Shown: positions 33,028 to 50,053 of the stretch, one piece after another | Layout: every line of letters starts with the position of its first letter | Position numbering within the stretch: the stretch's first letter is position 1 | Assembly: GCA_050736615.1 (NCBI GenBank) | Contig: JBOHWL010000192.1 | Coordinates: 1,865 to 65,864, forward strand | Reading direction: 5' to 3' | DNA from: Candidatus Binataceae bacterium | GTDB lineage: Bacteria > Desulfobacterota > Binatia > Binatales > Binataceae | Length of the DNA: 64,000 nt | The notes under the pieces: generated by a model | Told to the model about the DNA's origin: nothing | Database searches by the model: none | The model's input: only the letters and a program-made list of their open reading frames with translations | Position numbers and translations under genes: made by a program

Positions 33028-33801
33028 TCACTTGGCCGGCGGATTGACGCTCTGAGTGGCGATCAAAGCCCGCCGAATACGCGCGTCGCTAATCGCCACC
33101 TGGCCCATCGGGGCGCTCACGAGCGGCTGAATCTTACCGTCCAGCTTCGAGTCATCGCGCGCGGCCGTGCTGATACCCTCGGGCCCGAGATGGAGCGCGA
33201 CTTTTAATTGACCGGGCGCCGCGGTCGCGGATTTGAAGATGATGCCGCTGGTCTTCACCACCAGCGGCACCGCGAACAGCCGCGCCGTGCGCACTGGATC
33301 GAGCGAATAATAACCCACCAACAGACCGACGAAGCGCGCGTTGGCGACGCGGTCGAGAGTCAGCGTGGCCTCGCGTCCGGGTGTGACGATAAAGCTCTTG
33401 CTATCAAGCAGGATGCCTTGGCCAGGCCCGGGTTTGAGTATTGCCGCGCCGCCATGTCCCGCCTCGAGCATCGACGCGATCGAAGATTGGGTGGCGAGCT
33501 GAGTCAGAAACACGTTGGTTCCCTGGCTTTGGTAAACGCCCAGCACCACCGTATGCGGCCGGCTGTCATATGAATTCAGATTGGCGTCCGCGGTGACATT
33601 CAGCTCAATTCCATTGGCTTGCGCGCCCCACGTGACCTGTTTGAGCGCGGCGCGCTCGGCCCGCGCGGAACTCATGAAGCAGCCGCTCAGGCAAAGGGCC
33701 GCCGCCGCGAGCAGAACCTGAAGTGCCCGGCTTGGCGCATCCGCGCTCAATCCGCCGCGTACGCTCCCCGCTTGGTGGCTATTCCAGTTGCACGCTTTCA
33801 T
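33028..33801 (-). CDS. tssJ: T6SS outer-membrane lipoprotein, TssJ-like (extended)
   Basis: Lipobox LSGC. The LNSYDSRPHTVVLGVYQ segment resembles the TssJ/SciN core. At 257 aa it is longer than the canonical ~160 aa. Confidence 0.6.
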   Translation of the reverse strand: MKACNWNSHQAGSVRGGLSADAPSRALQVLLAAAALCLSGCFMSSARAERAALKQVTWGAQANGIELNVTADANLNSYDSRPHTVVLGVYQSQGTNVFLTQLATQSSIASMLEAGHGGAAILKPGPGQGILLDSKSFIVTPGREATLTLDRVANARFVGLLVGYYSLDPVRTARLFAVPLVVKTSGIIFKSATAAPGQLKVALHLGPEGISTAARDDSKLDGKIQPLVSAPMGQVAISDARIRRALIATQSVNPPAK

Positions 33802-34601
33802 TTGAGACGATGGACGAACAGTTCGGCCGCATCTGCTTCGGCATAGGGACCGAAGAGAATCGCGTCGGGTGAGCCTTCCACACGCACGAAATAGGAGTCA
33901 TTCGGGCCAAGTTGATTGCGCACCGCCCAGGCGCAAAATTCTTTGGCGCCCATCGTCAGCCTCAACCCCATTTGCGGGAAATTCAGCACCGTGCGATCGG
34001 GAATTTTGCCGCGCCCGCCGGCCGCATGCAGGTTGATTGCGCCGCCCGCCACCCCGAACAGCGCCCCATTCCAGCTTTCGTCCCGAGGACCCAACTCAAA
34101 CCATTGGCCGATCCGCTGATCGCCGTAAGCGTCGAGTCGATACTCGGCAACCGCCGCGGCCGGCCTGAGATTCGCCAAGGCGACCAACTTCGCCTCCCAC
34201 GAGGGCGTATCCGTGGTGATAATGGCCGCCCCGGCCAGCGGGGTCGGAAGCTCCACGGCACTGATCGTTCGCGCGCCACTGGAGATCAGGACAGTCGCCG
34301 GCGATATCTCAGCCTGCGCGCGTAGCGCAAGCGCGAACAGCGACAGACCATAACGGACACTGTCGCTTTGCAAACCACCCTCGCCCGTCAAGATCAACCA
34401 TATCGCCGCTCGGGCGCGGACAACTTCATCGCGCGCGGCGATCCATGCAAAGTTGGCCAAATCGTCGGTCCACAAATGGCCGTCAACTTTCAAGCCGTAG
34501 CGCGCCAGCCTGGCAGCCACCATTTGCACCGGCTGCTCGGTTTTCTCCAGCGCAGTGAGCCAAACGGTCTTCATCATTCGTCCGGCCAAACGCCTTCCCA
34601 C
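33798..34601 (-). CDS. hypothetical protein embedded in the T6SS operon
   Basis: 267 aa. The 4-bp overlap with the tssJ start suggests translational coupling. No signal peptide and no recognisable motif. Confidence 0.55.
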   Translation of the reverse strand: MGRRLAGRMMKTVWLTALEKTEQPVQMVAARLARYGLKVDGHLWTDDLANFAWIAARDEVVRARAAIWLILTGEGGLQSDSVRYGLSLFALALRAQAEISPATVLISSGARTISAVELPTPLAGAAIITTDTPSWEAKLVALANLRPAAAVAEYRLDAYGDQRIGQWFELGPRDESWNGALFGVAGGAINLHAAGGRGKIPDRTVLNFPQMGLRLTMGAKEFCAWAVRNQLGPNDSYFVRVEGSPDAILFGPYAEADAAELFVHRLK

Positions 34602-34619: not shown

Positions 34620-35027
34620 TTAAGGAGCCAGCAAAAGAACGGTGAACTGGCTCGGCACCAGTGTCACACCCGGGCAATTGGTCAGATTCTGCAATGTTAC
34701 TGAGGTCAGGCGCGTGGCCGGAGCGCCGTCCACGATGACGGTAAAGGCGCCGGTTATTTGCCGCGTCGGGCCCATCACCACGCCCGAGGCCACGCCCAAC
34801 TCGACGCCGGGGTCATCGCCCTGACTCAGCGGGACCTCCGTCATCAGATTGTGCGCCGGCGTGCCGCCAAACAGGATATTGTAGGCGGCGGGCACGCCCA
34901 TCGCTTCGGTCGATAGGTTTGGATAGGGCGTGGGCACGGGCACACCCGCAATCGGGGTATTGCACACATCAGGAAAGCCCATATTCATTCCGCCCATCTG
35001 AGTATTCGCGAACATGTTCTCCTCCAC
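34620..35027 (-). CDS. PAAR-like protein (DUF4150)
   Basis: MFANTQMGGMNMGFPDVCNTP N-terminus is typical of the DUF4150 PAAR-like spike-tip family. Confidence 0.8.
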   Translation of the reverse strand: MEENMFANTQMGGMNMGFPDVCNTPIAGVPVPTPYPNLSTEAMGVPAAYNILFGGTPAHNLMTEVPLSQGDDPGVELGVASGVVMGPTRQITGAFTVIVDGAPATRLTSVTLQNLTNCPGVTLVPSQFTVLLLAP

Positions 35028-35684
35028 TCACCCCAGATGAATCTGGCCGGCATCAATCTTGGCCAGCTCTTCCGACATCACAATCGTGTTACGCGAATCC
35101 AGCGCGAACAGCTCATCGCAATGATACTGAGTATTGCGGGTGGTAATGTGCTCATGCTGATCGACGCGCCTGAAGCTTCGCGCGATCCATTGGGTCAAGG
35201 TCTCGACCACCGACTCGAACCGCGTCGCCACCAGTTTCACCCGGCCCACCACCGCGTTGAGGGATGCGCCGCTGTGGTTCAGTTCCCCAACGGTCACGTC
35301 GCCGCGCCCGGCGGCGACATTGATCGCGGAGGAAAGAAGGGAAATATCGGCCGGACTTGCCAGGTCGATGCCGTTTTCGGCGTTCAATAAAAGCCGCCCG
35401 CGTGCGATTTTGAGATGGACATCGCCCTCGAATGCGAGGCCCAGCCGCGCGCCGCTGCCGCGTTCGAGAATCGCCAGGACATACGAGGTACGGTCATCGC
35501 AGGTAACGTACAAAACCTTATCGCCCAAGGCTGGAATAAGTATGCAACTGAAAGCGCGCTCGCATCTCAGCAGGCCCCGCTCGCCGCGCACCGTGAGTGG
35601 TTCGCACAGATGCACCACACCGGTCATGATGCCAGTGGGGGCCGGATGCGGCGGGCGCTCAAGTTTATAAATTGAACTAGCCAT
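35028..35684 (-). CDS. DUF3540-domain protein
   Basis: ~218 aa, placed between the pentapeptide-repeat and PAAR-like genes, which is the conserved neighbourhood of DUF3540. Confidence 0.55.
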   Translation of the reverse strand: MASSIYKLERPPHPAPTGIMTGVVHLCEPLTVRGERGLLRCERAFSCILIPALGDKVLYVTCDDRTSYVLAILERGSGARLGLAFEGDVHLKIARGRLLLNAENGIDLASPADISLLSSAINVAAGRGDVTVGELNHSGASLNAVVGRVKLVATRFESVVETLTQWIARSFRRVDQHEHITTRNTQYHCDELFALDSRNTIVMSEELAKIDAGQIHLG

Positions 35685-35693
35685 TGGAATCCT

Positions 35694-36761
35694 CTATCGG
35701 CGCGCGCCCCAATCCTCCGCCTCGGCCAGTTCGGGATCGGTGCCCGACGCGCTCGCACGGTTCGCGCTTCCCCACAACACCTGCGAAAGGTCGGCGCGAT
35801 GGAATTTGGCGCGGGCCAGCATGGCGCCATTGAAATCGGCACCCTCGAGCTTGGCATGGAAGAAGTCGCAGAACGAAAGATTCGCGCGCGCAAAGCCGGT
35901 GCGCTGACACAACGCGCGGCTGAACTGCGCCTGTCCCAGCTCGGCGCCATCCAGCCGCGCGGCTGTGAGATCCGCCTCGATAAACAGCGCCTGCGTCAGC
36001 GAAGTACGCTTGAGGCTCGCGCCCTCCATTTTCGCCTGCACGAAGATCGCATTGTCCGCGCGCGCCCCATCGAGTATCGCACCGGTCAGATTGGCGCCTT
36101 TGAAATTGCATTGCGACAGATTGGCGCCGCTCAGATCGCATCCCGACAAATCGGCCTCCATAAACTGGCAGAGCTCGAGATTCGCGCCGGACAATTTCTG
36201 TCCAGCCAGTGTGGAATTCATAAAAAACGAAAGCTCGCAAGCCATGCCAGCCATCACCGCGCTGGATAAGTTGGTTTTGATGAGCGTCGTCCGGTGCAGC
36301 CTCGCGTTCGCAAAATTGACACCAGTCAACACGCTGTTAAGAATCGAAGTTCGCTCAAGATGCGCACCGGTGAGATCCGCCGAACTCATATCGGTGTTGA
36401 TAAAGGCCGTCAGCTTGAGATCAGCTTCTCCGAGTTCCACCCCCTTGAGTCCGCAATCAAGGATTTTGGCATTCAGCAGCTTGCTCCGTTCCAAATTGGT
36501 CCGTTCCAGCTTGGAGCGCTCGATCACGGTACGGCTCAGCAGCGCGTCGCCCAGGTCGGCTTCGGAAAAATCCGCTTCGCTCAGAATCGATTCCTCGAAC
36601 GAAACGCGTTGTAGCTTGGCTCCGCGAAAATTCACCTTATTGAACACGCCGCCGGATAAGTCAGCGTCCGCCAGGTCGAGGCTGGAAAAATCCATATTGG
36701 TTATAAGCTCGCCGTTGCGCACGCCCGCAATCAGTTCCTCCCGTGTCATCGCGGCTTCCAA
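35694..36761 (-). CDS. pentapeptide-repeat protein
   Basis: Tandem A(D/N)LxG/A(N/D)F pentapeptide repeats run through the whole protein. Confidence 0.9.
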   Translation of the reverse strand: MEAAMTREELIAGVRNGELITNMDFSSLDLADADLSGGVFNKVNFRGAKLQRVSFEESILSEADFSEADLGDALLSRTVIERSKLERTNLERSKLLNAKILDCGLKGVELGEADLKLTAFINTDMSSADLTGAHLERTSILNSVLTGVNFANARLHRTTLIKTNLSSAVMAGMACELSFFMNSTLAGQKLSGANLELCQFMEADLSGCDLSGANLSQCNFKGANLTGAILDGARADNAIFVQAKMEGASLKRTSLTQALFIEADLTAARLDGAELGQAQFSRALCQRTGFARANLSFCDFFHAKLEGADFNGAMLARAKFHRADLSQVLWGSANRASASGTDPELAEAEDWGARR

Positions 36762-39484
36762 TCTTTAAGCAGGGTGCGCTTGAGATTGGAGCCGGCCAAA
36801 TCGGTGTGCTGGTCGAGTGTCGCGTGCAAAACGTCAGCCCGATACATATTTGCCGCGCGTATCGAGGCGCCGCTCAGAATCGCCTTGTGCATCACCGCCT
36901 CGAACAGATTGGCGCCGTCTAAATTGCTTCCGCTGAGATCGCTGCGCGTCGTCCGCAGCCGCGACAAGTCAGCGCGCTGAAAATCAGCGCGCTTGAGATT
37001 CGCGCCGGAAAAATCCGCGTTCGCGGCTTTCGCTTCGACGAGCTTCGCTTCCTCCAAATTGGCATCGCGAAGACTCGCGCCTTCGATCCCGGCACGCGAG
37101 AAGTCCGCGCCGGGCAACGTGCTATTGATGGTGAAGACCAACTTTTCAGTTCGCACATCGGCAAAGCTCGCATGCGCAAGCTTTGAGTCGAGAAAACTGA
37201 CGCGGCGCATCTTAGCCCCTTCGAAGCCGACCGCGTTGAGCTGGTCGCGCAGAAACAACACCCGTTCCATTTCCGCGCGTGCGAATTTGGCGCCGCTGAA
37301 ATCGCTGTCGATGAAATTAATGTGTTCGAGGTGAGCGGCGGAGAAGTCCGCGTTCGACGGCTTGGCGCCGAGAAAATCGACCTTGTCCATCCGGGCGCCG
37401 GTAAAATCGGCGGCCGCCAGCACCGCGCCGGCCAGCGTCGCCCCGGTGAAATCCGCATCGTTAACCGTGGCGCCGGTAAAATCCGCTCCTCCCGCACAAC
37501 TGTTGTTCAACTTCGCATTCCCGAGTTTCGCTTTCACTAACCGCGCGCGGGCCAGCACCGCGCCGCTGAAATCCGCTCCGCCCAAATCGCTGTTGCTGAG
37601 GTTGGCCGCCTCCATCAGAGCCTCGCGGAAATCCGCGCCGCGCAGGTCCATCCCCGACAAGTCGGCGCCAGTCAGATCAACGCCGGCAAAACTCTTCCCC
37701 TGCTTACGATCCTCCGCGACGCGGGCTTTGACCGCCGCGGCGCGCTCGGCCGGCAACGGCATCACAGGTGGAAAATGATGGGCGAATTTCCGATACGTTT
37801 CGCGTAATCGTTGTTCCGCCTGCGTCAGCTTCTCCCGCAAATCCGGCTCGGCGAGCTGGCTGTCGATCTTTTCACTGGAAAGGCCGCGCGCCTTCAAACT
37901 TTGGCTGAGGGCCGCGAGTTGTTCGAGTTGCCGCGCGGCGCTGAATTTCGGCGGACCTCCCGCTTGAACTTTCGCCTGGGCGGCTAGCTGATCGTAGTCA
38001 ACGCCCAACTGCGTGCAGCGCGCCCGCGCTGCCTCCTCCGCCTGACGGAAGCGCGCCAGCGCGTCAGCTTTCGTGGCTTCGGCATCCGCGCGGATTTTGT
38101 CCAGGTCGAGATTCTCAAGGCTCACCGGTTCGGATTCCGGTGGCAGCGTCTGCGCCAGCGCCTCATCGATCTTGGATGTGTCGGGAGGCGGCAGATTGAG
38201 TTGCTGTGCCTGCTTCAGCATCGCCTCACGCCGTTCAAGGAGTTGGGCCTTCGCGCTCTCCAACCGCTTCTCGGCTCCCGCCCGCTGATGCTTGCGCAGC
38301 AGGCCTTTGGAAGCGATCAGGGCTTGGAGTTCATTCTCGTCCTCGGGAATCACGCCTGGTGGCACCCCTTGCTCCGGCGGCATCAGGTCGCTTTCACGCA
38401 TAACCGCGCGCATCGCGCGCACTCGATTCGCCCGGTCGAGACGCGCCGACAAAACCTCCTGATAGTGGGACGCGGGTTTGGGTTGTCCGGCGGCTTCGGC
38501 GCCCGCGATGATTTGCAGGACATCCGCCGCGTCGTCGGTATTGATCGCCGCAATCCCGCGAAACAGTACGACCGCTCGTTCAAGGTGCGGAAACAGCCAC
38601 AGCGTCTCCGGCACGGTGCGAATCTCCTCGAACGATTCGCCACCATCGACCTTGCGATTGATGAAACAGCGCATGGCTATATCCGTCACACGCGAACTGA
38701 CTAATGGCTTGGAGGGATGCATTCCAGAAATTTCAAAGCTTTCACCGCCCTGAAAAAACCTCTGGAGTTGCTGATCGGCCGGCGCCGCATTGAAAATCGC
38801 CCAGTCCATATCGGCGGCAAAACCGGGAAACCGCTCCGCGAACCACCGCGCGTCATATGTGCCGGTCTTGGAAAACCGCTGCGGCCAGATGAAATCGTAC
38901 GGCTCGAAACTGGCCGCCGCCGCCGGACGGTCGCCAGGCGATCCGATCAGATGCGCCGGATCCTCGATGTTGGGCAGCGGATGTGCCGTTAGGCCGTTTT
39001 TATCGGTCACCGGCGCGACGCCTTTGCCAATCGGATTTTGCGCATATGCGGCGCCGCCGAACGCGTTGCGCCAAGATATGTCCATCCGGGTGAAAGGCGC
39101 CGGCTCTGAAGGCGCGCCGCGCCGCCAAAAGCGATCGCCGAAGACGTAGAGCCGCTTATCAATTGAGCCAAGTTGAAAACGCACCTGCAAGGCCGGCGTC
39201 GGCCGGCCGGCCGGGGAAAAACATGCGCCCTTGATCAAAACCTCGCCGCGCGTTTTCGGCATACCCAGATCGAGTACGCCGTCTTTACCCAGTTCCGCCG
39301 CGATCGTTTTCCACATCGCGGCTTCGGGCAGCAGCCACTGGGGGTTTTCGAAGGGCAAGAACGCCGCGACAGTGGCCGCCAGATAACAGCGCTCGCCGTC
39401 CTGGTAGCTCCTGTACAGCAGCCCAAGCCGTTGTGGCTTTACGATCTTCATCAAGTCTTGTCCGGTGCGACCGATGCGCTTCAA
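36746..39484 (-). CDS. DUF2169-domain protein with C-terminal pentapeptide-repeat region
   Basis: N-terminal ~330 aa resemble DUF2169 (vgrG-linked adaptor family). The middle is a coiled-coil/charged region and the C-terminal ~300 aa are pentapeptide repeats. Confidence 0.7.
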   Translation of the reverse strand: MKRIGRTGQDLMKIVKPQRLGLLYRSYQDGERCYLAATVAAFLPFENPQWLLPEAAMWKTIAAELGKDGVLDLGMPKTRGEVLIKGACFSPAGRPTPALQVRFQLGSIDKRLYVFGDRFWRRGAPSEPAPFTRMDISWRNAFGGAAYAQNPIGKGVAPVTDKNGLTAHPLPNIEDPAHLIGSPGDRPAAAASFEPYDFIWPQRFSKTGTYDARWFAERFPGFAADMDWAIFNAAPADQQLQRFFQGGESFEISGMHPSKPLVSSRVTDIAMRCFINRKVDGGESFEEIRTVPETLWLFPHLERAVVLFRGIAAINTDDAADVLQIIAGAEAAGQPKPASHYQEVLSARLDRANRVRAMRAVMRESDLMPPEQGVPPGVIPEDENELQALIASKGLLRKHQRAGAEKRLESAKAQLLERREAMLKQAQQLNLPPPDTSKIDEALAQTLPPESEPVSLENLDLDKIRADAEATKADALARFRQAEEAARARCTQLGVDYDQLAAQAKVQAGGPPKFSAARQLEQLAALSQSLKARGLSSEKIDSQLAEPDLREKLTQAEQRLRETYRKFAHHFPPVMPLPAERAAAVKARVAEDRKQGKSFAGVDLTGADLSGMDLRGADFREALMEAANLSNSDLGGADFSGAVLARARLVKAKLGNAKLNNSCAGGADFTGATVNDADFTGATLAGAVLAAADFTGARMDKVDFLGAKPSNADFSAAHLEHINFIDSDFSGAKFARAEMERVLFLRDQLNAVGFEGAKMRRVSFLDSKLAHASFADVRTEKLVFTINSTLPGADFSRAGIEGASLRDANLEEAKLVEAKAANADFSGANLKRADFQRADLSRLRTTRSDLSGSNLDGANLFEAVMHKAILSGASIRAANMYRADVLHATLDQHTDLAGSNLKRTLLKDWKPR

Positions 39485-41865
39485 GCCATGATGTGTATGA
39501 CCGCGTCCTCAATCATGTTAATGCGACTCTCGATCCTCACAGCGCCGTCTTCAATATCATTGATGGAACTGCGGATATTCGTCACTTGAGTGCTAAGTCT
39601 GCTTATCGCGTTTTCGACCCTAATGCCGTTGGTGTAAATCTCGGGCCCGCCCTTTAGCGTAATCGTGGCGGCCAGCGCCGCTTCGAGACAGATCGCGAGT
39701 TTGAGATTCTCGTAGCCGCCAATAAACATATCCTGGTAGTTGCCTACGAAATTCAGCGATGTCAGACCGATATGGTTTTCGTTATGCGCTGCAATATACG
39801 TTTCGGTGGTGGCACCGTAATAGACATAATAATCGATATCCTTGACGATATGCTCGACCGGGCCCTCGAATACAACATTGCATTTGCCTGAGACCGTAAG
39901 TTCATAATCGCCGCCGACCGTGATGTTGTAATCTCCGCTGGTATTGGTCTTCAGATCGTTTCCAACGGTGAGCGCGATATCTTTCTGGGTGTTGAACTGG
40001 ACGTCGCCGGCTTCGGGCGCGCCGTAGGCGCTTTGCCGCGGATGTGGTCCGACGTTGGTGACCGCATAGCCGGTTATGTTCGATTGCTGGTTGCCCCCGA
40101 CGATTTGGGTTGAGTCATTGGAATTGGACTGGAAATAGTCGCCATTCTTCAGCGCCGAGGGCGGCTGCGAGTTCGGCCCGACCAGCGTCTGCAGGTATTC
40201 GCCGATCCGGATACGCCCGTTGCCGTTGGTGTTGATGACGATGTGATTGCCGGTAAGCGTGCCATCATCGCCTCGCGCTCCCCATGGCGGACCGCCTTGC
40301 GTCGCACTCGTCACCGCGCCCAACGCGATATAGGTATCCTGCGTGGGAGTCCGCAGGGTGATATTTTGCGCGCCCTCCTGGTCTTCCATCCACAGCAAAT
40401 TGCCGCCGCCGGTATAAAGTACGTTCTGGGTCGAGTTGCCACTGGTGACCATGTTGGGATTGTCGGAATTCGGCACGGTGTTCACGATCACCGGACGGTC
40501 GGGGTCGCCGTCGATAAACGCAAGCAACACCTCCGCGCCTTTGCGCAATGGGAAATGCATGCCTGAGCGTGGGTCCGAATAGGGTGTCGCCAGCCTGATC
40601 CAGGCCGACGCCTTCTGCGCCGGCTTGTCGGTCTTGTCGAACGGCAACTGCACTTTGTAACGTCCGTATTGGTCAACTTCGGCGTATTGGCCGCTGCCTT
40701 CCGCGTCGATAAACCCGTTCATCACGCCATCCATGCGCGGCCACGGCGTCGTTCGCGCCGGCCGGAACTGGACGTCCGCGGCGATCGCGCTGAACTCGTT
40801 GCGATAAAACGGCTCGTCCTGCTCGCCGGACAATCCGCTGATACCCAAACCCGCCAACAGCACGGCGGTTTGCGAGCCCTTGTGACTAATCTCCAACGGC
40901 AGATAGTGCGTGTTGAAGGCCGAGCGGAAATGCCGCGCCAAAGAGAAGAAAACTCCGCTGCGCATTCCAATCGCGGTGCTCTCGCCATGGAACACCCGCC
41001 CGTGCCATGCGATTTCCTGCGCGCGCAGCTTCGCCACCCGTTCCGCTTCCGCTTGCGTATCGACATTTTCGCCGTAGAGAATGACTTCACCCACGCCGCC
41101 CGGCGAGACCGGCGCGCTTTGCGAAATGTTGAGCGCGGCCTTTTGATAATTGTAATCCTTGACCATCACGGTCGCCGGTAACGGTTGCTGCTGGCACACG
41201 AGCGCCTGCACCGCATCATCGGTCACGTGGGTATCCAAATCCGCGGCCGGCCGATAATTGAGTTTCAACTCCGGCGCGGTCTGAAAGCTCAGAGCGTCGG
41301 TGATAATCAGCTTCTCCCGTTCCGCGCCGGATTCGAAGTAGTAATAGACGCCGTCGCGCTCCATCAGCCGGCTGATAAAAGCCAGATAGGTTTCCTGGTA
41401 TTGGCACACGTAGGGCCATACGCGATATGAGCTTGACAGCCGTATTTCGTAGTCCAGACTGGTCAGTCCGCCCGCCCGCAGAATCTCCTCGATTAACTGC
41501 GGAATGGTCCGTTCCAGGTACACTTCCGACAGGTAAGTCTGCGACAACAGCCACAGCTTCGGTTCAAGCCGCGCTTCGTAAAAGACATACTGATCGACTT
41601 TGCGCGATTGTTCGAAACGAGTGACGATGCCGCGATATTCGCCACTCGCGCCGGACCCCTCGCCTCCACGGATCTTCAGAGTGGCGTCTTTATACAGCAC
41701 CGCCTCAAGATCGATATCAGCGCTGGCGGCGACCAGCGTCACGGCGAATTCGTACGGACGCGACAGGCCCTCTTTGCCGCTGATACTGACTACCGTGAAG
41801 GTGTCGGACGCGAGCGCCGAGGAATGAAATTCATAATGCCGCTCCGCGATTTGATTATCCGCCAT
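39481..41865 (-). CDS. vgrG: type VI secretion system spike protein VgrG (TssI)
   Basis: gp27/gp5-like domains at 794 aa. No extended C-terminal effector domain is present. Confidence 0.9.
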   Translation of the reverse strand: MADNQIAERHYEFHSSALASDTFTVVSISGKEGLSRPYEFAVTLVAASADIDLEAVLYKDATLKIRGGEGSGASGEYRGIVTRFEQSRKVDQYVFYEARLEPKLWLLSQTYLSEVYLERTIPQLIEEILRAGGLTSLDYEIRLSSSYRVWPYVCQYQETYLAFISRLMERDGVYYYFESGAEREKLIITDALSFQTAPELKLNYRPAADLDTHVTDDAVQALVCQQQPLPATVMVKDYNYQKAALNISQSAPVSPGGVGEVILYGENVDTQAEAERVAKLRAQEIAWHGRVFHGESTAIGMRSGVFFSLARHFRSAFNTHYLPLEISHKGSQTAVLLAGLGISGLSGEQDEPFYRNEFSAIAADVQFRPARTTPWPRMDGVMNGFIDAEGSGQYAEVDQYGRYKVQLPFDKTDKPAQKASAWIRLATPYSDPRSGMHFPLRKGAEVLLAFIDGDPDRPVIVNTVPNSDNPNMVTSGNSTQNVLYTGGGNLLWMEDQEGAQNITLRTPTQDTYIALGAVTSATQGGPPWGARGDDGTLTGNHIVINTNGNGRIRIGEYLQTLVGPNSQPPSALKNGDYFQSNSNDSTQIVGGNQQSNITGYAVTNVGPHPRQSAYGAPEAGDVQFNTQKDIALTVGNDLKTNTSGDYNITVGGDYELTVSGKCNVVFEGPVEHIVKDIDYYVYYGATTETYIAAHNENHIGLTSLNFVGNYQDMFIGGYENLKLAICLEAALAATITLKGGPEIYTNGIRVENAISRLSTQVTNIRSSINDIEDGAVRIESRINMIEDAVIHIMA

Positions 41866-41894: not shown

Positions 41895-44513
41895 CTACTG
41901 TGTGAATGCGACCTTGAAATCCCCGTCCGGCGCCATCTCGAGCGATACGGCGGCGGGCGCTTGCCCTTCGCCGATCCGCGCCAGAATCTCCTGCGACATC
42001 TTGGGCATCACGCCGATGGTCAAAATAAAATCGATATTACGCGCGCCGGTCTCGACCTCGGTGCAGCGCGCCGCGATTTGCGCCACCACCTCGTCAGTGT
42101 AATTCAGCTTGATCCGCTGATTGGCGGCCAGTCGCTGCGCCAATTTATCCAGCTTTAATCTGACAATGCCCTGCATCGCACCGGCCGCCAGCAGGTAATA
42201 TGGCACAATAGTCATTCGCGCCAGCAGCGCCGGTTTAAAATGATTACTCAGTATTGGCCGGATCGCGTCCGTCACGGTCGTGCCGGCGGGAATCGGATCG
42301 GCGCGGCAAAGCTCGGTAATCACGTCGCTGGCGAGATTGCTGGTGAGAAACAACACCGTATTCTTAAAATCAACCGCGCGCCCCTCACCGTCGGACAGGA
42401 CGCCTTTGTCGAAAACCTCGTAGAACAGGTTGAGCACGTCGAGGTGCGCTTTTTCAGCTTCGTCGAGCAGCACCGTCGCATAAGGACGCTGACGCACCGC
42501 CTCGGTGAGCACCCCGCCCTCGCCGTAGCCAACGTAGCCGGGCGGTGAGCCGACCAAGCGGGAGACCGTATGCTTTTCCTGGAATTCGCTCATGTTGAGC
42601 GTGACCAGCGAATGCTCGCCGCCGAAAAGCAGGTCCGCGACCGCGAGCGCGGTTTCGGTCTTGCCCACTCCGCTCGGGCCCGCCAGCAGAAACACGCCCA
42701 ACGGTTGCGCCGGGTCCTTGAGGCCCGATTTGGCCGACTTGACCACCCGGGCGATCAAATCGAGCGCCTGATCTTGCCCCTTCACGCGCGTTTTGAGGTT
42801 GTCGGCGAGGTTCAGCACGCCACGAGCCTGATCGCGCATCACCTTGCCCAGCGGAATGCCGGTCCAATCCGAGACCACCTTGGCCACCACGTCCGGATCG
42901 ACCTCGAGCCGTAATAAAGGTGAGCCGCCGCCGGCGCGCGCGTAGCCTTCGGCAGCCGCCTTGAGTTCGCGCGCGGCCGCGTCGCGCTCTTTTCCAGCGC
43001 CATTGAGGGCCGCGACTCGCCCGCGCGCTTCAATCACTTTTTGCGCGGCGGTCTGTTCCGTTTGCCAGCGCTCACGTAGGCCGGCCGCCGCCTTACTCAG
43101 CTCCTCGGCTTTTTGCCCGATCTCTTCGAGGCGGCGGCCGTCGACTTCCTGGCCGTTGTCGCGATCGCGTTCGAGCGCATGCCGCTCACGCTCGAGCGAC
43201 TCGAGATGCCGTTCGCAATCGTCAAGCGCGTCGGGTTTGGCGGTCAGACTGACGCGGACTCGCGCGGCGCTGGTATCGAGCAGGTCCACCGCCTTGTCCG
43301 GAAGCTGGCGCCCGCTGATATAACGGTTGGCCAAATCGGCGGCGGCCACAATCGCGTCGTCGCGCACGATCACGCCATGGGCCTGTTCATATTTTTCTTT
43401 CAGGCCCCGCAGAATTTCCACCGACGTGTCAACCGAAGGCTCGTCGAGCTTGACCAACTGAAAGCGGCGCGCCAGCGCGGCGTCCTTTTCGAAATATTTT
43501 TTGTACTCCGACCAGGTGGTGGCCGCGATGGTGCGCAATTCACCGCGCGCCAGCGCGGGTTTGAGCAGATTGGCCGCATCACCTCCGCCCGCCTGCCCGC
43601 CCGCACCGATTAGCGTATGGGCCTCGTCAATAAAAAGAATAATTGGCTTGGCCGAGCCTTTGATTTCAGTGATGACCGATTTGAGCCGATTTTCGAATTC
43701 GCCGCGAACACCCGCGCCTGCTTGCAGCAGACCCATGTCCAGCCCGAGCACCGTCACGCCGCGCAGGAAATCGGGAATGTCGTCGCGCACCACGCGCAGG
43801 GCGAGTCCTTCGACCACCGCGGTCTTGCCCACGCCCGGGTCGCCGACGCAAATCGGGTTATTCTTGCGGCGGCGCGCAAGAATATCGATCATTTGGCGGA
43901 TTTCCTGGTCGCGTCCGAACACCGGATCGATCGCACCCTCGCGTGCGCGCGCCGTAAAATCCATACAGAAGCGCGCCAGCGCCGTGCCGCCGCCGTCAAC
44001 CGCCGTCGCGGCGCTGGCGGAGCCAGCCGCTTTGACCGCTTCGAGCGACTCTCTGGTGACCGCGAAAAACTCGGCCATGATCCGTTCGCGGTTAAGCCCT
44101 CGCAGCAAATCAACATACGCGCCCGAGGCAAAGAATGACGCGCGCGCCAGCAACGCCAACAGCATCGCGCCCGAGCGGATTCGATCGGCGCCGAGATCGA
44201 TCGAGCTCAGCACCCAGGCGTCCTGCACCCATTCCAGCAATAGCGGCGAAAATACCGGTTTGGCGCCATTGCCGGTGCGAAAATCCTCAATCGCGCGGTT
44301 CACCGCCGCTTGCATCCGCGCGCCCTCGATTCCTTGTTTGCCCAGAATCAGATTAAGGTCGCAACGCGCGTCGGCGAGCAAAGCGCTCAAAAAATGCTCG
44401 ACCGTGATCTCGTAATTGGTTCGCGAGAGGCACGCGCCGGCGGCATTTTCAAGCGCACGGGTGCTATACGGATTAAGCCGCGCCACCAGCCCCTTGAGGT
44501 CCGCAAGAATCAT
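41895..44513 (-). CDS. clpV: type VI secretion system ATPase TssH (ClpV)
   Basis: Two AAA+ modules (GDPGVGKT, GPSGVGKT) with a Clp N-domain. Confidence 0.95.
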   Translation of the reverse strand: MILADLKGLVARLNPYSTRALENAAGACLSRTNYEITVEHFLSALLADARCDLNLILGKQGIEGARMQAAVNRAIEDFRTGNGAKPVFSPLLLEWVQDAWVLSSIDLGADRIRSGAMLLALLARASFFASGAYVDLLRGLNRERIMAEFFAVTRESLEAVKAAGSASAATAVDGGGTALARFCMDFTARAREGAIDPVFGRDQEIRQMIDILARRRKNNPICVGDPGVGKTAVVEGLALRVVRDDIPDFLRGVTVLGLDMGLLQAGAGVRGEFENRLKSVITEIKGSAKPIILFIDEAHTLIGAGGQAGGGDAANLLKPALARGELRTIAATTWSEYKKYFEKDAALARRFQLVKLDEPSVDTSVEILRGLKEKYEQAHGVIVRDDAIVAAADLANRYISGRQLPDKAVDLLDTSAARVRVSLTAKPDALDDCERHLESLERERHALERDRDNGQEVDGRRLEEIGQKAEELSKAAAGLRERWQTEQTAAQKVIEARGRVAALNGAGKERDAAARELKAAAEGYARAGGGSPLLRLEVDPDVVAKVVSDWTGIPLGKVMRDQARGVLNLADNLKTRVKGQDQALDLIARVVKSAKSGLKDPAQPLGVFLLAGPSGVGKTETALAVADLLFGGEHSLVTLNMSEFQEKHTVSRLVGSPPGYVGYGEGGVLTEAVRQRPYATVLLDEAEKAHLDVLNLFYEVFDKGVLSDGEGRAVDFKNTVLFLTSNLASDVITELCRADPIPAGTTVTDAIRPILSNHFKPALLARMTIVPYYLLAAGAMQGIVRLKLDKLAQRLAANQRIKLNYTDEVVAQIAARCTEVETGARNIDFILTIGVMPKMSQEILARIGEGQAPAAVSLEMAPDGDFKVAFTQ

Positions 44514-44605
44514 CGGTTAGCCAAGCCGCTCCCAAACCGGATGGCGGCTTGGTTCCATTGCAGCCCGCCGTGCGCCTATCCACAATCCAGATGAAATTCC
44601 GCTTT

Positions 44606-45583
44606 TCATAATTCAAACCGCGCCGTAACGCCGTCATGGGGCTGTTCGGAGAGCAGCCACGTATCCAATCCCAGGCTCAACGGACGTTCTCCTCCCAGAC
44701 TCAGCGGCGGCGCCTCGCCGGCCGCGAGCAACAATTCCATTTCGCATCGCAGCGGGCTCACCAGATAAAACGTGATCATAAATTCAAGCGCCTTATGCAG
44801 CGCGCCACCCGGGCTGAGCCGGGCGAACAGTTCACGCCCAAGCGGACCGATGCGGATCAGCACCGTCGCCATACGATCATCGATCTCGGCGCCCAGATAT
44901 TGATCCTCGCCGAGCTTCATCCGCTGCTCGCCGATCACCATCCGTTGATCGGAGGGAATCGGGATGCGCCGCAATTCACACTGGCCAACCGCCACTGGCA
45001 CGCCAAGAAAATCCGCGAGCAAGGCTTTGAGTCCCAGAGCGCAACGTGGAAACTGGGAGAACAAGCCGAGATACCGCATCAGCGCCGCCGTGTATGGAAC
45101 ATCCTGGCGCAAAGAGCGCTCGCCCAGGCCGATCAGCAGTCCCAGTTCATTATCGAAGGTCTCGTCGCGTTCTTCGCGCACACGCACGACGGCGCGATAG
45201 CGGCACCAGGTCAGATAGAGCAAGGGATAGAGGACGTTATGAATGATGTCGAGGAAGTCACGGACGGCGCCGCGTTCCTCACGCGCCTCGTCGATGAGGT
45301 CTTCCGTGTAAAAGGTCGGTAGCGGCGAAGACGTTCCATAGAGCGCGAGAAAATTCGGCTCGAGCGTATAGCCATTCGTGCCGGTAATCGCGTTAAGGTC
45401 GGATTCGGGGAAGGCCAGACTCAAATTGGGGCGGAACCGCAGCGAAGCGCCATTGGCCGCGCCGCCGTCCATACGGCGGAGCAGCCGCAGCAGCCGCACG
45501 GCCTGAAAATAGTCATAGGACCGCCCTTGGCGCAGCAAGTCCTCGCTTAGAGCAGCGGCTGTTGTCCGATCCTCTCCGGCCAT
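44606..45583 (-). CDS. tssG: type VI secretion system baseplate protein TssG
   Basis: YDYFQAVRLL N-terminal motif. The ORF maximum extends to 45634 and would overlap tssF by 88 bp; the internal Met at 45583 is the likelier start. Confidence 0.8.
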   Translation of the reverse strand: MAGEDRTTAAALSEDLLRQGRSYDYFQAVRLLRLLRRMDGGAANGASLRFRPNLSLAFPESDLNAITGTNGYTLEPNFLALYGTSSPLPTFYTEDLIDEAREERGAVRDFLDIIHNVLYPLLYLTWCRYRAVVRVREERDETFDNELGLLIGLGERSLRQDVPYTAALMRYLGLFSQFPRCALGLKALLADFLGVPVAVGQCELRRIPIPSDQRMVIGEQRMKLGEDQYLGAEIDDRMATVLIRIGPLGRELFARLSPGGALHKALEFMITFYLVSPLRCEMELLLAAGEAPPLSLGGERPLSLGLDTWLLSEQPHDGVTARFEL

Positions 45584-47289
45584 TGGTACTTGTCCCCGCT
45601 CAACAGCTCTTCCAACCCAAAGCGCGTGTAGCAATTGATCGCGGCATAATCACTTAAAAACTCATTGAGTATACATCCGAACAAATAGAGATCCCCGCGA
45701 CAGGCAAAATAATCCTGACGGCATTTGAGAATTATATTCTGGCCGCGCATCAGCGCGCCGCTGACGATGCGGCTCCCCGCCCGCACTTCCATTTCCTGCA
45801 AGCCCTCGATCCGCCGGCGATTGGCGATTGCCGCGTCCTCCCCCTGCGCCTGCGCGAATATATAGAGATTGAGCAGCGATTTCAGATTGGGCGCGTTTGC
45901 GATACTGAGGTAATTGAGCGCCAGATGGGAAAGTATCCGCGTCAGCAACGCCTCTCCCATCGGCGGATTGAGCGGCGGCGTGGGCGGCATGATATTGGCA
46001 AATACCAGCCGCTCGGGAGAGGTGTCGGTCGGCCGTGAAATGTCGCCGATGCCGAGGCTGACCGGCAGCACGCCGTTGGTACAGGTCAAGCGTACCGACA
46101 GGATTTCCGGTTGGGGCACGCGTTGGGGCTGGTAGGCGATACTCAGATAGGATTCCAGGCCACGGCCTATATTCGCGAGCCGCGTCACCACCTGGTAAAC
46201 CGTCATCTCGTCATCTTCGGCCGCGGCGCCGTCGCCGCGGAACAATCCCAAAGGCGTATAAACCCGCGGCGCGCTCACCCCCGGTTGGCGGCCCGTTACC
46301 TCGTCGACCGAGAAGATCTGGTAGTGCGTCCGTTGACGGCCCGCCGGCAGCAGTCGATACTCACTTGCGCGATGATCGAGCGATACCGGCTCGGCCTCGG
46401 CATTGAACAAATTGATCGCGGGCGTGGCGTTGAGCACGAAGGCTTCGGGACGCACCGGACCCATCCAGCCCGGCAATTCCTTCAGCATGAAATCGAGCGT
46501 GAACTGAGTGCTTTTGCCCCGATTGCGCCAATGTTCGAGCCCGCCGATTTCAACGAATAGAAATTTTTGCGGCAGCACGAAATATTCTTCGAGCAGGCGG
46601 TACCCCGGGTACGCATGCGGCGGATAGGGAATCAGCGTGTCCTCGTCAGCGAAACCTACCGGACGCAGCGCCGCCGCCGGCAACAGCGCCGCTTCGCCGC
46701 CGGGCGCCGCCACCATGATTCCCGTGAGATATTGACGCAGCAGCAAGTAAAGATTCGTGGCTTCGGTAATTTCGCCGGCCAGATGGAGCCTCAGCGCCGT
46801 GGCCCTCAGCGTGCCGACATCGCCCACATCCAACGCGAAGGTGAGCCGAAGGCGCGGTTGAGTTCCCGCATCCGCGATTACGCGAGTATCGCGCAACGTG
46901 ATCGGTTGAACCTCGACCGGATAGCAGGTGCGAAAGACGCAGGCGGTACCATCAACCGGGTTTGACGCGAGTTCGACTCCGGCCGCCACTTTGGCCGGCT
47001 CGTTCAGCCTTCCCTTGGGATTGAAAGTGACAATCGTACAAGACGGTATCACGCGAATATAATGCGGAAAAATCATGTTTCCCAAACTCTGGATGAATTC
47101 GGGAAATTCACGATCAAGGCGCTGCCGGATGAGCCCCGCGAGAAACGCCACGCCTTCCAATACCCGTTCGACATCCGGGTCCGAGCTGGGGCCGGCCAGC
47201 ATCGGCGCCAGCGCGGGATGGGCATGGGAAAACTCCGCCGCGAGCTGGCGCAGATGGCCGAGTTCTTCTTCGTAATACCGATTCAGCAT
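45547..47289 (-). CDS. tssF: type VI secretion system baseplate protein TssF
   Basis: MLNRYYEEELGHLRQLAAEF N-terminus at 580 aa. Confidence 0.9.
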   Translation of the reverse strand: MLNRYYEEELGHLRQLAAEFSHAHPALAPMLAGPSSDPDVERVLEGVAFLAGLIRQRLDREFPEFIQSLGNMIFPHYIRVIPSCTIVTFNPKGRLNEPAKVAAGVELASNPVDGTACVFRTCYPVEVQPITLRDTRVIADAGTQPRLRLTFALDVGDVGTLRATALRLHLAGEITEATNLYLLLRQYLTGIMVAAPGGEAALLPAAALRPVGFADEDTLIPYPPHAYPGYRLLEEYFVLPQKFLFVEIGGLEHWRNRGKSTQFTLDFMLKELPGWMGPVRPEAFVLNATPAINLFNAEAEPVSLDHRASEYRLLPAGRQRTHYQIFSVDEVTGRQPGVSAPRVYTPLGLFRGDGAAAEDDEMTVYQVVTRLANIGRGLESYLSIAYQPQRVPQPEILSVRLTCTNGVLPVSLGIGDISRPTDTSPERLVFANIMPPTPPLNPPMGEALLTRILSHLALNYLSIANAPNLKSLLNLYIFAQAQGEDAAIANRRRIEGLQEMEVRAGSRIVSGALMRGQNIILKCRQDYFACRGDLYLFGCILNEFLSDYAAINCYTRFGLEELLSGDKYQWPERIGQQPLL

Positions 47290-47546
47290 CCCGCCCTTAA
47301 CCCACTCGTGACCACGTCGCGGAGTTAATCAGCACGCGGCTTGCGGACTCGCCCGCTTCCGCTGTCGCGCGGAGGCACTGGCGCGGTTTCATTTCGTTCC
47401 GCTGAGGACGTTCCACCGCGTGCTCGCCTTCCCGCGTACCGCCGCGGGAGCGCCCCCGAGGATTGATTTCGCATGCCCCCTCCGTTGCGTTCGCGCTTAA
47501 CCCGGCGGCGTCGAACGAGATGGCGCACACGCCCCCGCCTTCTCCC

Positions 47547-47963
47547 TTATCGATCGATTTCGACCCGCCCGTTCGGATTGACCACGGTCGCCAGATGCAC
47601 CGCGATCTTGCGGTCATCCACATTGATCGAACCCAATAATTCGAATCTCAATGCGAGCGGATCCTTTTCATCCGGCACCAGCTTGAGCGAGACCTCCGCC
47701 AGGCGCGGCTCGTAGTGCTCGATCACGCGCAGAATGTCGGCCTCGACCTCGCGGGTTGAGCTGGAAACGAAGGCCCCCGCGAGGTTGGTGAAATCCGGCA
47801 CGCCGTAGAGCGGGTCGATTGGCGCGCTGCCCTGGCGCGTGTTCAGCACGCGTTGCAGGTGATTTAGGATCGACTCGACTACCACTTCGGCGCGCGAGGC
47901 CGAAGTCAGCGCGCCGCCACGCTCACGGTCGGCCAGGCGCTCCAGCAGGCGCTGCTCCCGCAC
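47547..47963 (-). CDS. tssE: type VI secretion system baseplate protein TssE (gp25-like)
   Basis: GPW/gp25-like ~138 aa with the SILNHLQRVLNTRQGS motif. Confidence 0.9.
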   Translation of the reverse strand: MREQRLLERLADRERGGALTSASRAEVVVESILNHLQRVLNTRQGSAPIDPLYGVPDFTNLAGAFVSSSTREVEADILRVIEHYEPRLAEVSLKLVPDEKDPLALRFELLGSINVDDRKIAVHLATVVNPNGRVEIDR

Positions 47964-47965
47964 CG

Positions 47966-48448
47966 CTAATTACCGGTCCAGGAATCCTCCGTCTCGATCC
48001 CGTCCTTGACCCAGGTCCAGATGATCTTCTCATAGGTGAGGGAAACGTTTTCCATATGGCCGAGCTGCTGATCGTCGGGCTTGAGCGCATTCGGCATCCA
48101 GGTGCGCAGGTCAACGATGATCGCGTTCTGCAGTTTGGTCGTGAAATACTTCTCCTCGACACCCTCTTTCGAAATGCGGTACCAATCGATCTCGACATTG
48201 GTCATTTGCTCGCCGGTACATAGCGCCTGGAACAACTTGGGCGAGCTTTTATCGATTTCCTTAGTCAGCGTGAGCGGGCCGTGAACGCGCTTGCCGGTCG
48301 GCAAACCGGTCTGCGGGCTGCGCGGGATCTCGATATTGTGCTCGACGCCTTCCACCAAAATGGTGTTCTCGCGGCCTTTGATGGTACACGAGCCCTGGAT
48401 TTTGCCTTGTTTTGCGCCGGTCAAGGTTAAATTGATCGGAACTGGCAT
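47966..48448 (-). CDS. hcp: type VI secretion system tube protein Hcp
   Basis: Hcp1-family protein of 160 aa. Confidence 0.92.
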   Translation of the reverse strand: MPVPINLTLTGAKQGKIQGSCTIKGRENTILVEGVEHNIEIPRSPQTGLPTGKRVHGPLTLTKEIDKSSPKLFQALCTGEQMTNVEIDWYRISKEGVEEKYFTTKLQNAIIVDLRTWMPNALKPDDQQLGHMENVSLTYEKIIWTWVKDGIETEDSWTGN

Positions 48449-48529
48449 GGATGATTCCCTCCCTCTTTCCGTCTATTGCTAAATTCACGCCGCACGCCGG
48501 CGATAGCATAGCCACCTGATACCCAGTGG

Positions 48530-50041
48530 TTATTGAGCCTTGTCCAGCTTGCCCACCAACGAAAGCGTGAACGACGCTCCCATATACTTGAAATGGGGCC
48601 GCACCTTGAGCGACACCCGGTACCATCCCGGATCGCCTTCGACGTCCGACACCATGATCTCGGCTTGGCGCAATGGCCGGCGGCTACGCACTCCTGGCGC
48701 CGGATTGTCCATATCGGCGACGTATTGGCGAATCCAGGTGTTGAGCTCGCGCTCCAGGTCAGTGCGTTCCTTCCAGGTGCCGATATTCTCGCGTTGAATC
48801 ACTTTGATGTAATGCGCGAGCCGGCTCATCACGAACATGTACGGTAACTGGGTGCCAAGCTTGTAGTTGAGTTCGGCCTCCTTGCCTTCCTTGCTTTGGC
48901 CGAAGAACTTCGGCTTTTGCGCTGAGTTGGCGCTGAAGAAAGCCGCGTTATCGCTGTCCTTGCGCATGGTTAAGCCGATAAAGCCTTGCTCGGACAGTTC
49001 GAACTCGCGCCTTTCCGAGAGCAGCACTTCAGTCGGGATTTTGACCTGTGTCTCCCCCATCGCCTGATAGGTATAAAGCGGCAGGTCCTCAACCGCGCCG
49101 CCGCCTTGCGGACCAATGATATTGGCGCTCCAGCGGTACTTGGCGAAGCTGTCGGTCAGGCGCGTGGCAAAGGCAAAGGCCGCGTTGCCCCACAGGTACT
49201 GCGCGCCACTTTGGCTGACTTCTTCGCGGTAATCGAATTTTTTCGTCGGCACCGTGTCCGGACTGTAAGGCAGGCGCAACAGGAAATGCGGCAGCGTGAG
49301 TCCGACGTTGCGCGCGTCTTCGCTCTCGCGGAAGGCGTTCCACTTCTGATACTGCGGTCCTTCGAGAATCGAGCCGAGATCTTTCAGATTCGGCAGACCC
49401 GCGAAATTGTCCAACCCAAAGAATTGCGGACCGGCGGCGGCGATGAACGGCGCATGCGCCATCGCGGCGACGCTGGCCACGTTTTGCAGCAATTTAATAT
49501 CCTGCGGACCCGGCCCAAACTCGTAGTTGCCGATGATTGCGCCGTAGGGTTGCCCGCCAAATTGTCCGTATTCGGACGTATAAACCGTCCGGTAAAGACC
49601 TGATTTCGTGATTTCCGGCGCGTCTTCAAAGTCGTCGAGCAGCTCCTGCTTGCTGGCGCTAATCAGGCTGAGCTTGATGTTCTCGCGAAAATCAGTGCGA
49701 TCCACCAGGAATTTGAGCGAACGCCACGCTGACTCGAGTTTCTGAAAATCGGCGTTGTGCATGATTGCGTCGACCTGGCGGCAAAGCTTTTGATCCAGTT
49801 CCGCCACCATGCTGTCGACGATCGCCTGGCTGACTTTCTCCTGGGCGCGCTGCGGTTCCAGTAACTCGGACAGAAACGCCTGGATGCCCTGGCGAGTAAT
49901 CGCATACGCCTCATCATCGGGCTTGACCCTGGTGGCCTCGACCAATTCGTTCAGGAGCGAACCCGCGCCGTTTTCCTGACCGGCTTGAGGCGCCGGCGCT
50001 TCAGCGGCTGGACTTGCCACGTGATCTTTATCATCCGCCAT
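48530..50041 (-). CDS. tssC: type VI secretion system contractile sheath large subunit TssC
   Basis: VipB/TssC family at 503 aa. Confidence 0.95.
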   Translation of the reverse strand: MADDKDHVASPAAEAPAPQAGQENGAGSLLNELVEATRVKPDDEAYAITRQGIQAFLSELLEPQRAQEKVSQAIVDSMVAELDQKLCRQVDAIMHNADFQKLESAWRSLKFLVDRTDFRENIKLSLISASKQELLDDFEDAPEITKSGLYRTVYTSEYGQFGGQPYGAIIGNYEFGPGPQDIKLLQNVASVAAMAHAPFIAAAGPQFFGLDNFAGLPNLKDLGSILEGPQYQKWNAFRESEDARNVGLTLPHFLLRLPYSPDTVPTKKFDYREEVSQSGAQYLWGNAAFAFATRLTDSFAKYRWSANIIGPQGGGAVEDLPLYTYQAMGETQVKIPTEVLLSERREFELSEQGFIGLTMRKDSDNAAFFSANSAQKPKFFGQSKEGKEAELNYKLGTQLPYMFVMSRLAHYIKVIQRENIGTWKERTDLERELNTWIRQYVADMDNPAPGVRSRRPLRQAEIMVSDVEGDPGWYRVSLKVRPHFKYMGASFTLSLVGKLDKAQ

Positions 50042-50053
50042 ATCGGGCGCTCC

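Follow-up and report, generated by a model that had tools for sequence, protein, structure and literature searches.

Some described type VI secretion systems (T6SSs) carry a spike cassette known as a 'class III Tvp' system (TvpAB-TvpB-TvpC-Paar1; PMC13373197) or as DUF2169 'synteny type C' (PMC11883445), which matches tagAB-5/tagB-5/tagC-5/tagD-5 of Burkholderia T6SS-5 (PMC6335564). Such a cassette is present, as a vgrG-to-PAAR block, in a stretch of 64,000 nt from Candidatus Binataceae bacterium (GenBank assembly GCA_050736615.1, contig JBOHWL010000192.1, positions 1,865 to 65,864), referred to below as the window. The minus strand of the window encodes a complete T6SS, comprising tssB, tssC, hcp, a probable tssE, tssF, tssG, clpV, vgrG, tvpAB, tvpB, tvpC, a PAAR-like gene, an unnamed gene designated X, tssJ, tssK, tssL and tssM. 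In Burkholderia T6SS-5, tssJ-5 directly follows tagD-5 (PMC6335564); thus, X is an additional gene with respect to the characterised systems.

The timing, the place and the choice of spike in T6SS firing depend on T6SS-associated genes (TAGs), many of which are still unexplained (2026 review of T6SS accessory factors). Judged from its sequence and gene order, X is a new T6SS-associated (Tag) family outside every named family, and a TAG in the operational sense only, i.e. a non-core gene conserved in T6SS clusters. This placement was adopted because the comparisons with TagF, TIR, receiver, Tvp, TssA and effector/immunity proteins all failed. The family is found neither among the TAGs tabulated in the 2026 review nor in Pfam or NCBIfam, yet across at least six phyla its conservation is close to that of ClpV and TssF. 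The papers defining the Tvp/DUF2169 module (PMC13373197, PMC11883445) make no mention of it, and no description was found in the literature on TIR and T6SS accessory proteins or on Desulfobacterota T6SSs. We tentatively favour, with slightly less than even confidence, a reading of X as a non-catalytic cytoplasmic T6SS assembly adaptor that acts by binding, likely where the baseplate, loaded with its spike, joins the membrane complex.

Reading frame and expression of X

A first-pass annotation of the window had described X as an unassigned 267-aa open reading frame (ORF) with a GTG start (33798..34601, minus strand). The strongest homologue of X has E = 1e-78, so that the ORF is far beyond chance, but the length given for it did not hold. 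In an alignment of 114 database homologues the proteins are ~258 aa long and begin with M-K/x-x-V/I-W. A 'hypothetical protein' from a Candidatus Binataceae metagenome-assembled genome (MAG), P0001, is 100% identical to X and has 259 aa, its N-terminus MMKTVW corresponding to the ATG at 34577; the N-terminus MKTVWL that was quoted in the first pass corresponds to the ATG at 34574. On the basis of the homologue alignment and the identical 259-aa protein, the start is assigned to one of these two codons, and the true coding sequence (CDS) is predicted to be 33798..34574/34577, with 258–259 aa instead of 267. Almost no homologue extends beyond the MKxVW start, and the two that do so carry unrelated sequences. 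The eight or nine extra N-terminal codons of the GTG version are thus probably not translated.

Both neighbours proposed in the first pass were borne out by family matches (Table 1): the ORF downstream, whose start X overlaps by 4 bp, is tssJ, and the gene that X follows is PAAR-like, ending 42–45 nt before the ATG of X. No promoter-like or terminator-like site was found in 33000–35800. Given the ATGA overlap with tssJ, the absence of a terminator and the conserved T6SS synteny, X is almost certainly transcribed with the T6SS operon, as had been suspected.

Distribution of the family

A profile search of 1.84 billion proteins (50% clustering) returned 286 representatives related to X at E <= 0.001. 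Nearly all of the best 150 of these 286 are stand-alone proteins of ~258 aa, or shorter partials, and family members are labelled 'hypothetical'. The sole clear fusion among the matches listed, P0117 (758 aa), joins X to a protein with an FHA domain, a transmembrane (TM) helix and an SLT domain; it is probably a gene-call or frameshift merger of tightly adjacent genes, since its topology would put X in the periplasm.

A genome scan found relatives of X in 162 species genomes. Carriers belong to the Desulfobacterota/Thermodesulfobacteriota, Nitrospirota, Nitrospinota, Acidobacteriota, Betaproteobacteria and Binataceae. The best 80 of the 162 genomes are mostly Desulfobacterota/Thermodesulfobacteriota, together with Nitrospirota, Nitrospinaceae, Acidobacteriota and Betaproteobacteria (Herbaspirillum, Burkholderiaceae), and further carriers from the protein search are Paraburkholderia, Polaromonas, Caballeronia and Solimicrobium. 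Most carriers are environmental lineages in which T6SS biology is unstudied. Cultivable carriers do exist (Herbaspirillum, Paraburkholderia caballeronis, Janthinobacterium, Polaromonas, Caballeronia and Desulfopila), so that the role of X is directly testable, and a name for the family would help to annotate hundreds of 'hypothetical proteins' better.

Genomic context

Synteny was examined by mapping the T6SS proteins of the window onto 83 loci of <= 20 kb, with crude ORF calling in high-GC DNA, and by clustering the neighbouring ORFs. The first-pass annotation had proposed such a check, and T6SS genes were found near X in every locus with enough flank to judge. X closes a variable spike/effector region on its 3′ side, where this borders the core genes. 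Upstream of X there is usually a PAAR-like gene or tvpC, otherwise the gene of an FHA-TM-SLT protein (F13), a DUF2169-only gene, clpV or vgrG; a spike cassette lies upstream in most loci with enough flank. The downstream gene is tssJ in Binataceae, Nitrospira, Betaproteobacteria and Nitrospinaceae, and tssK in one locus (L055).

Three arrangements are diagnostic. Extra vgrG genes may lie between PAAR and X, with X still directly before tssJ (L002, L005, L080); the spike cassette may be absent within 10 kb, with X between clpV and tssJ (L079) or directly after clpV (L081); or genes may be inserted between X and tssJ, with X still closing the spike operon (L073, L076, L077, L083). From these arrangements X is taken to mark the boundary of the core cluster, beside the site at which spike cassettes are inserted.

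The proximity to spike genes raises the possibility that X is an extra Tvp-type spike-loading chaperone, binding the PAAR-like tip, TvpC or VgrG and helping to form or hand over a secretion-competent spike, comparable with the TvpD proposed in class II. X comes straight after PAAR-like or tvpC in most loci, the window included; in some Desulfobacterota loci it follows modules of DUF2169-only plus PAAR-like genes (F16/F45); and the number of Tvp components varies between classes (PMC13373197). X shares its operon with the Tvp proteins (TvpAB/TvpB/TvpC/TvpD; TagAB-5/TagB-5/TagC-5; PMC13373197, PMC11883445), directly after the class III block, and it would likewise be cytoplasmic, non-enzymatic in appearance and variably present between systems. 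It differs from them in having no homology to DUF2169, pentapeptide-repeat, DUF3540/DUF6484 or thiolase-like TvpD proteins. Moreover, X is kept beside clpV/tssJ where there is no Tvp/PAAR cassette nearby (L079, L081), and it stays beside tssJ despite intervening vgrG genes (L002, L005, L080). The class III Tvp systems of Serratia and Burkholderia work without X, and one sister locus (L087) has an X-less tvp-PAAR operon. X also diverges in step with the core genes and not with PAAR (see below). A chaperone of this kind is therefore considered unlikely, though still a serious contender.

In 40 of the 83 loci, all of them Desulfobacterota-like, X is directly followed on the same strand by the gene of a 256-aa helical protein, F3. 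No F3 gene occurs in the 64-kb window or in the Nitrospira, betaproteobacterial and Nitrospinaceae loci, and some Desulfobacterota loci also lack it, X being the last gene there (L004, L008, L030, L037). A paralogous relationship between F3 and X was ruled out (hhalign probability 0.35%); F3 represents another T6SS-associated family without a name.

In 12 Desulfobacterota loci (L021:8542-9996, plus strand, and 11 others) X directly follows the gene of the F13 protein, ~485 aa, in which an FHA domain, a TM helix and an SLT lytic transglycosylase domain follow one another. To judge from these domains, F13 may remodel peptidoglycan specifically for the T6SS, with its FHA domain in the cytoplasm. 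Separately, a 523-aa protein matching VipA/TssB in its N-terminal part and also VipB/TssC is encoded in L037:10779-12350 (minus strand), in L012:12836-14407 (minus strand) and in about 30 other Desulfobacterota loci. This apparent fused sheath-like gene is convergent with X, and an FHA gene comes after it. It may represent an extra or atypical sheath component; other tss genes are present in some of the same loci.

Evolutionary behaviour

Measured against the window copy, X scores 0.76–0.93 bits/residue, which is near ClpV (0.9), TssF (0.85) and PAAR (0.5–1.2). This is above TssJ (0.34–0.51), TssL, TssM, TvpB and TvpC, and below TssB, TssC, Hcp and TssK. Between pairs of loci, the sequence identity of X rises and falls with that of the sheath-family protein (r 0.85), the FHA protein (0.88) and F3 (0.89), and less closely with that of PAAR (0.42, as against 0.85–0.89 for the core genes). 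Part of such a correlation comes from common phylogeny, and it does not prove an interaction. To judge from these sequences, X shows the pattern of a vertically co-inherited machine component, unlike an exchangeable effector, immunity or spike-cassette gene.

This pattern bears on two further explanations, both of which had been listed as candidates in the first pass. X could be a secreted cargo effector, for example a TIR-like one, carried on the VgrG/PAAR-like spike, with F3 as its immunity protein where present. It does lie directly downstream of a vgrG/PAAR module, the usual place of a cargo effector, some members have weak similarity to TIR_2 (best 6.8e-5), and F3 would supply a same-strand partner in the loci that have it. 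The many loci without F3, the window included, speak against an effector, as do the missing conserved Glu of the TIR-like domain, the translational coupling to tssJ, and the uniform length and architecture, which, with the core-like conservation and co-divergence, describe one compact family and no polymorphic toxin. An effector is thus regarded as very improbable.

It is still harder to credit that X is an immunity protein against a toxin on VgrG or the PAAR-like protein, and this is rated as extremely unlikely. The location downstream of PAAR-like/VgrG would suit such a protein, and Serratia VgrG1, which belongs to the same Tvp class, has an unexplained toxicity and a nearby immunity gene, Vai1. 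Vai1, however, the one immunity protein described for this class of spike, is a DUF3192 protein that is anchored in the membrane and periplasmic, and its gene comes immediately after vgrG1; X, by contrast, is predicted to be cytoplasmic and has no TM helix. The Tox-PAAR-like domain fills the 135 aa of the neighbouring PAAR-like protein, leaving no toxin extension (Pfam). X also persists without a nearby spike cassette (L079, L081), and its conservation is far above that usual for immunity proteins. Neither an adjacent toxin domain nor a partner gene in the window could be identified, and both candidates are disfavoured.

Predicted structure and conserved residues

X has no match above threshold in Pfam, NCBIfam or PADLOC, whether searched as a single sequence, with profiles or by per-member scans, in agreement with the earlier statement that no motif could be assigned. 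PDB sequences likewise gave no match at E <= 10 with the protein, the full profile or separate N- and C-domain profiles. The first-pass annotation had noted that a confident match to a known T6SS accessory family would make the gene ordinary; no such match was obtained. The lack of a TM helix, also claimed there, agrees with a maximum Kyte-Doolittle 19-residue mean of 1.35. No signal peptide is apparent from sequence and model, a dedicated predictor not having been used, because the N-terminus forms the first strand of an alpha/beta domain. As to the Gly/Ala-rich stretches that had been reported, the composition is indeed rich in these residues (Ala 16%, Gly 9%; window GC 59%), but this is not low complexity, since the whole chain is predicted to be folded (mean predicted local distance difference test, pLDDT, 94).

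The AlphaFold2 (AF2) model, built from a 50-sequence alignment, has a pLDDT of 93.9 and a predicted TM-score (pTM) of 0.91, and shows two domains. The N-terminal domain consists of beta-alpha repeats with a five-stranded parallel sheet. Foldseek matched it to the KdpE receiver (TM-score 0.65–0.70), PurE, LarB and a cobalamin-binding domain, and more weakly to TIR-APAZ/SPARTA; a viral structure library gave the same generic flavodoxin-like matches. The C-terminal domain had no match among PDB folds at E <= 0.001. Conserved N-domain residues in the homologue alignment are W5, Y26-G27, G32-H33-x-W35-x-D37, W44, W59 and R74-x-G76-L77-S78.

TIR_2 (PF13676) is the sole Pfam family that recurs across members of the X family, always below threshold. 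Weak matches were seen in 5 of 50 full-length members (best 4e-4) and in 3 of 28 N-domains (best 6.8e-5), and residues 4–99 of P0068 align to profile positions 1–92 of 122 with 12.7 bits where the cut-off is 28; no TIR_2 match was obtained for the window protein in Pfam. In residues 1–140 no Glu is invariant or >=90% conserved, and the region expected to hold the catalytic Glu of TIR domains, used in NAD+ cleavage, is S-V-R-Y-G-L-S. Likewise, the acidic pocket of receivers and their phospho-acceptor Asp/Thr/Lys set are not conserved in the family alignment. The sole conserved acidic residue of the N-domain, D37, lies after beta2, and the residues that end beta3 differ between members (in the window protein they are T-G). 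On the strength of the model, the N-domain is read as a degenerate, non-catalytic TIR/receiver-like module, and one whose C-terminal beta-sandwich partner is unlike known TIR or receiver architectures.

Modelled alone, the C-terminal domain has a pLDDT of 92.8 (AF2). It carries an invariant or near-invariant G-Q-W-F-E, and W168, G170, P192, W216-A-V-x-N220 and S227-Y228 are also conserved. In the per-member scans LcrR gave weak recurring matches (7–8 related members, E about 0.01), which were taken as noise, the sequences being non-independent. A PilZ-like or FHA-like C-domain was rejected, as the motifs are absent when checked by eye and no such structures occur among the fold matches. The FHA domain of Fha/TagH is a beta-sandwich, as is the C-domain of X; X differs from it in having no FHA match in Pfam.

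A possible regulatory role

A receiver-like fold might point to a post-translational regulator of T6SS assembly, i.e. a non-homologous analogue of TagF or Fha in which a pseudo-receiver/TIR-like domain performs gating through a partner or a small ligand. The KdpE-like N-domain is in keeping with this, and H33, W35, D37, W44 and R74 appear to cluster at the C-terminal edge of the sheet, the ligand-binding place of such folds. In many Desulfobacterota loci, FHA proteins, a PpkA-like kinase, a PP2C phosphatase and an FHA-GAF-histidine-kinase are found near X or adjoin it. Additionally, the slot just upstream of tssJ-tssK-tssL that X occupies is presumably that of fha in P. aeruginosa H1 and V. 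cholerae. On the other side, X has no homology to TagF, Fha or PpkA, its phospho-acceptor residues are not conserved, and no kinase, phosphatase or FHA gene was found with Pfam near X in the window, betaproteobacterial and Nitrospira clusters. A regulator of this type is rated as improbable, yet credible enough to be weighed.

TagF itself had been the leading candidate of the first pass. TagF (DUF2094, PF09867; SciT/ImpM/PA0076) is a small cytoplasmic accessory of T6SS clusters beyond the 13 core components, as X is predicted to be. Neither the window protein nor 50 family members gave a DUF2094 match at E <= 1 in Pfam or NCBIfam, and no TagF structure is among the listed Foldseek matches of X. 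The genes with which TagF is associated, fha/ppkA/pppA, are absent from the window, betaproteobacterial and Nitrospira loci and lie close to X in many loci of Desulfobacterota; a TagF would find no Fha to sequester in the window cluster. A TagF identity is disfavoured.

Sister systems and the slot before tssJ

Sister loci were found by a search with the window TssK; their context was inspected and X was checked with a hidden Markov model (HMM). A Janthinobacterium locus (L089) has PAAR, then X, then tssJ. Other sister loci are X-less, and in two that are among the closest of these the gene directly upstream of tssJ encodes a 359-aa ImpA_N-only, i.e. short TssA-like, protein (L084:5077-6156, Moraxellaceae MAG; L085:5183-6262, Chitinibacter). 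To judge from these gene orders, other clusters thus give the slot of X to an assembly coordinator of a known class. Cytoplasmic coordination of assembly or firing, the kind of role proposed for X, is the task of the short TssA-like ImpA_N proteins and of the TssA partners TagA/TsmA, TagB/TsmB and TagJ (PMC13584744); X has no homology to the 359-aa protein with which it shares the slot. A derivation of X from the 359-aa ImpA_N protein was ruled out (hhalign probability 0.1–0.3%; no ImpA_N match in X), and X-bearing clusters keep a long TssA of their own elsewhere.

In L087 and L088 the tssJKLM operon begins with tssJ and the tvp operon is convergent, ending with PAAR-like in L087 and with DUF3540/TvpC, the last gene called, in L088. 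An apparently slot-specific accessory of another kind may be present in L088:4257-5960 (plus strand), where a 567-aa protein with no Pfam match precedes tssJ on the same strand.

X as a proposed assembly adaptor

In the reading favoured here, X would be made together with TssJ, TssK, TssL and TssM as a soluble cytoplasmic two-domain protein. It would bind other proteins, without catalysis, as an accessory adaptor in assembly of the apparatus, probably at the point of contact between the baseplate that carries the spike (VgrG, PAAR-like and Tvp proteins) and the cytoplasmic side of TssJLM/TssK. The cytoplasmic location, the non-enzymatic adaptor role and the assembly step are each inferred from sequence, models and gene order.

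Several observations weigh against an adaptor of this kind. The position of most X copies directly after PAAR-like or tvpC fits a spike chaperone equally well, and the company of F3, kinase, phosphatase and FHA genes in Desulfobacterota fits a regulatory role. The fold matches, all of them from models, are generic and give no pointer to a partner or a step. X is absent within 15 kb (HMM) from L087 and L088, the closest sister loci sampled (TssK 59% identical); in B. cepacia (L086) tssJ directly follows PAAR without X; and Burkholderia T6SS-5 and Serratia, which have the same class III Tvp cassette, also lack it. Because of these absences X is not generally required. On sequence evidence, it is an accessory that is patchy within this T6SS lineage, not a universal component.

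A more far-reaching and distinctly unlikely idea is that X, together with the helical F3 in Desulfobacterota, forms a new cytoplasmic sub-module of T6SSs, mostly found away from the classical model Pseudomonadota. It would be a TIR/receiver-derived switch, which either couples spike loading to docking on the membrane complex or senses a small nucleotide-type ligand to license firing. In that case X would add a control point to T6SS assembly, and not one more passive accessory. X may also show how class III Tvp spikes are linked to the membrane complex in systems unlike those of Serratia and Burkholderia.

Feature coordinates and further observations

Table 1. Coordinates of X, its predicted domains and the surrounding T6SS genes in the window, with one F3 gene from a related locus
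Feature	Position	Strand	Basis and remarks
X (unnamed T6SS-associated protein), CDS	33798..34577	-	259 aa (ATG 34577) or 258 aa (ATG 34574); TGA stop 33798-33800
GTG-initiated upstream extension of X, MGRRLAGR	34578..34601	-	Alignment; intergenic, probably untranslated
X/tssJ start/stop overlap, ATGA	33798..33801	-	4 bp, X ...CTC AAA TGA and tssJ ATG AAA GCG; predicted translational coupling
X N-terminal domain, residues 1-135	34170..34574	-	AF2, Foldseek; predicted flavodoxin-like, receiver/TIR-like
X C-terminal domain, residues 145-258	33801..34142	-	AF2 models; predicted beta-sandwich
tssJ	33028..33801	-	Pfam T6SS-SciN 1.1e-9, above Pfam cut-off; outer-membrane lipoprotein, 257 aa, lipobox LSGC; directly downstream of X
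PAAR-like (DUF4150 / PIPY / Paar1 / TagD) spike tip	34620..35027	-	Pfam Tox-PAAR-like 4.4e-37, residues 13-120; 135 aa; directly upstream of X
tvpC	35028-35684	-	Pfam; DUF3540; spike cassette
tvpB	35694-36761	-	Pfam; pentapeptide repeats; spike cassette
tvpAB	36746-39484	-	Pfam; DUF2169 + pentapeptide repeats; spike cassette
vgrG	39481-41865	-	Pfam; spike cassette 35028..41865
tssK	31621-33009	-	Pfam; operon downstream of X
tssL	30952-31617	-	Pfam; operon downstream of X
tssM	27152-30904	-	Pfam; operon downstream of X
Probable tssE	47547-47963	-	ORF only
clpV, tssG, tssF, hcp, tssC, tssB	within 41895..52344	-	Pfam
Long tssA, divergent	50704-52344	+	Pfam; ImpA_N + VasJ
F3, example	L012:10883-11653	+	Same strand as X; no Pfam match

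The TssJ of the window is unusually long, with ~40 residues ahead of the lipobox Cys and ~75 past the SciN domain. It falls under the NCBIfam TssJ cut-off (29.6 against 31.6 bits), yet passes that of Pfam. Starts other than the annotated ATG of tssJ may be possible.

The cluster as a whole (window 27152–52344) is a complete one of the T6SS-i type in a Binataceae MAG, and homologous clusters occur in Nitrospirota, Nitrospinaceae, Acidobacteriota and Desulfobacterota; T6SS-i is said to be restricted to Pseudomonadota (2026 review). Two ORFs of the window, one of 626 aa (58871-60751, minus strand) and one of 171 aa (52522-53037, plus strand), match no Pfam family at E <= 0.001. A few kb past tssA lie the genes of two Crp/Fnr-type cyclic nucleotide (cNMP)-binding transcription regulators (54197-55099, minus strand; 56191-57054, plus strand), which are possible candidates for regulators of the T6SS cluster.

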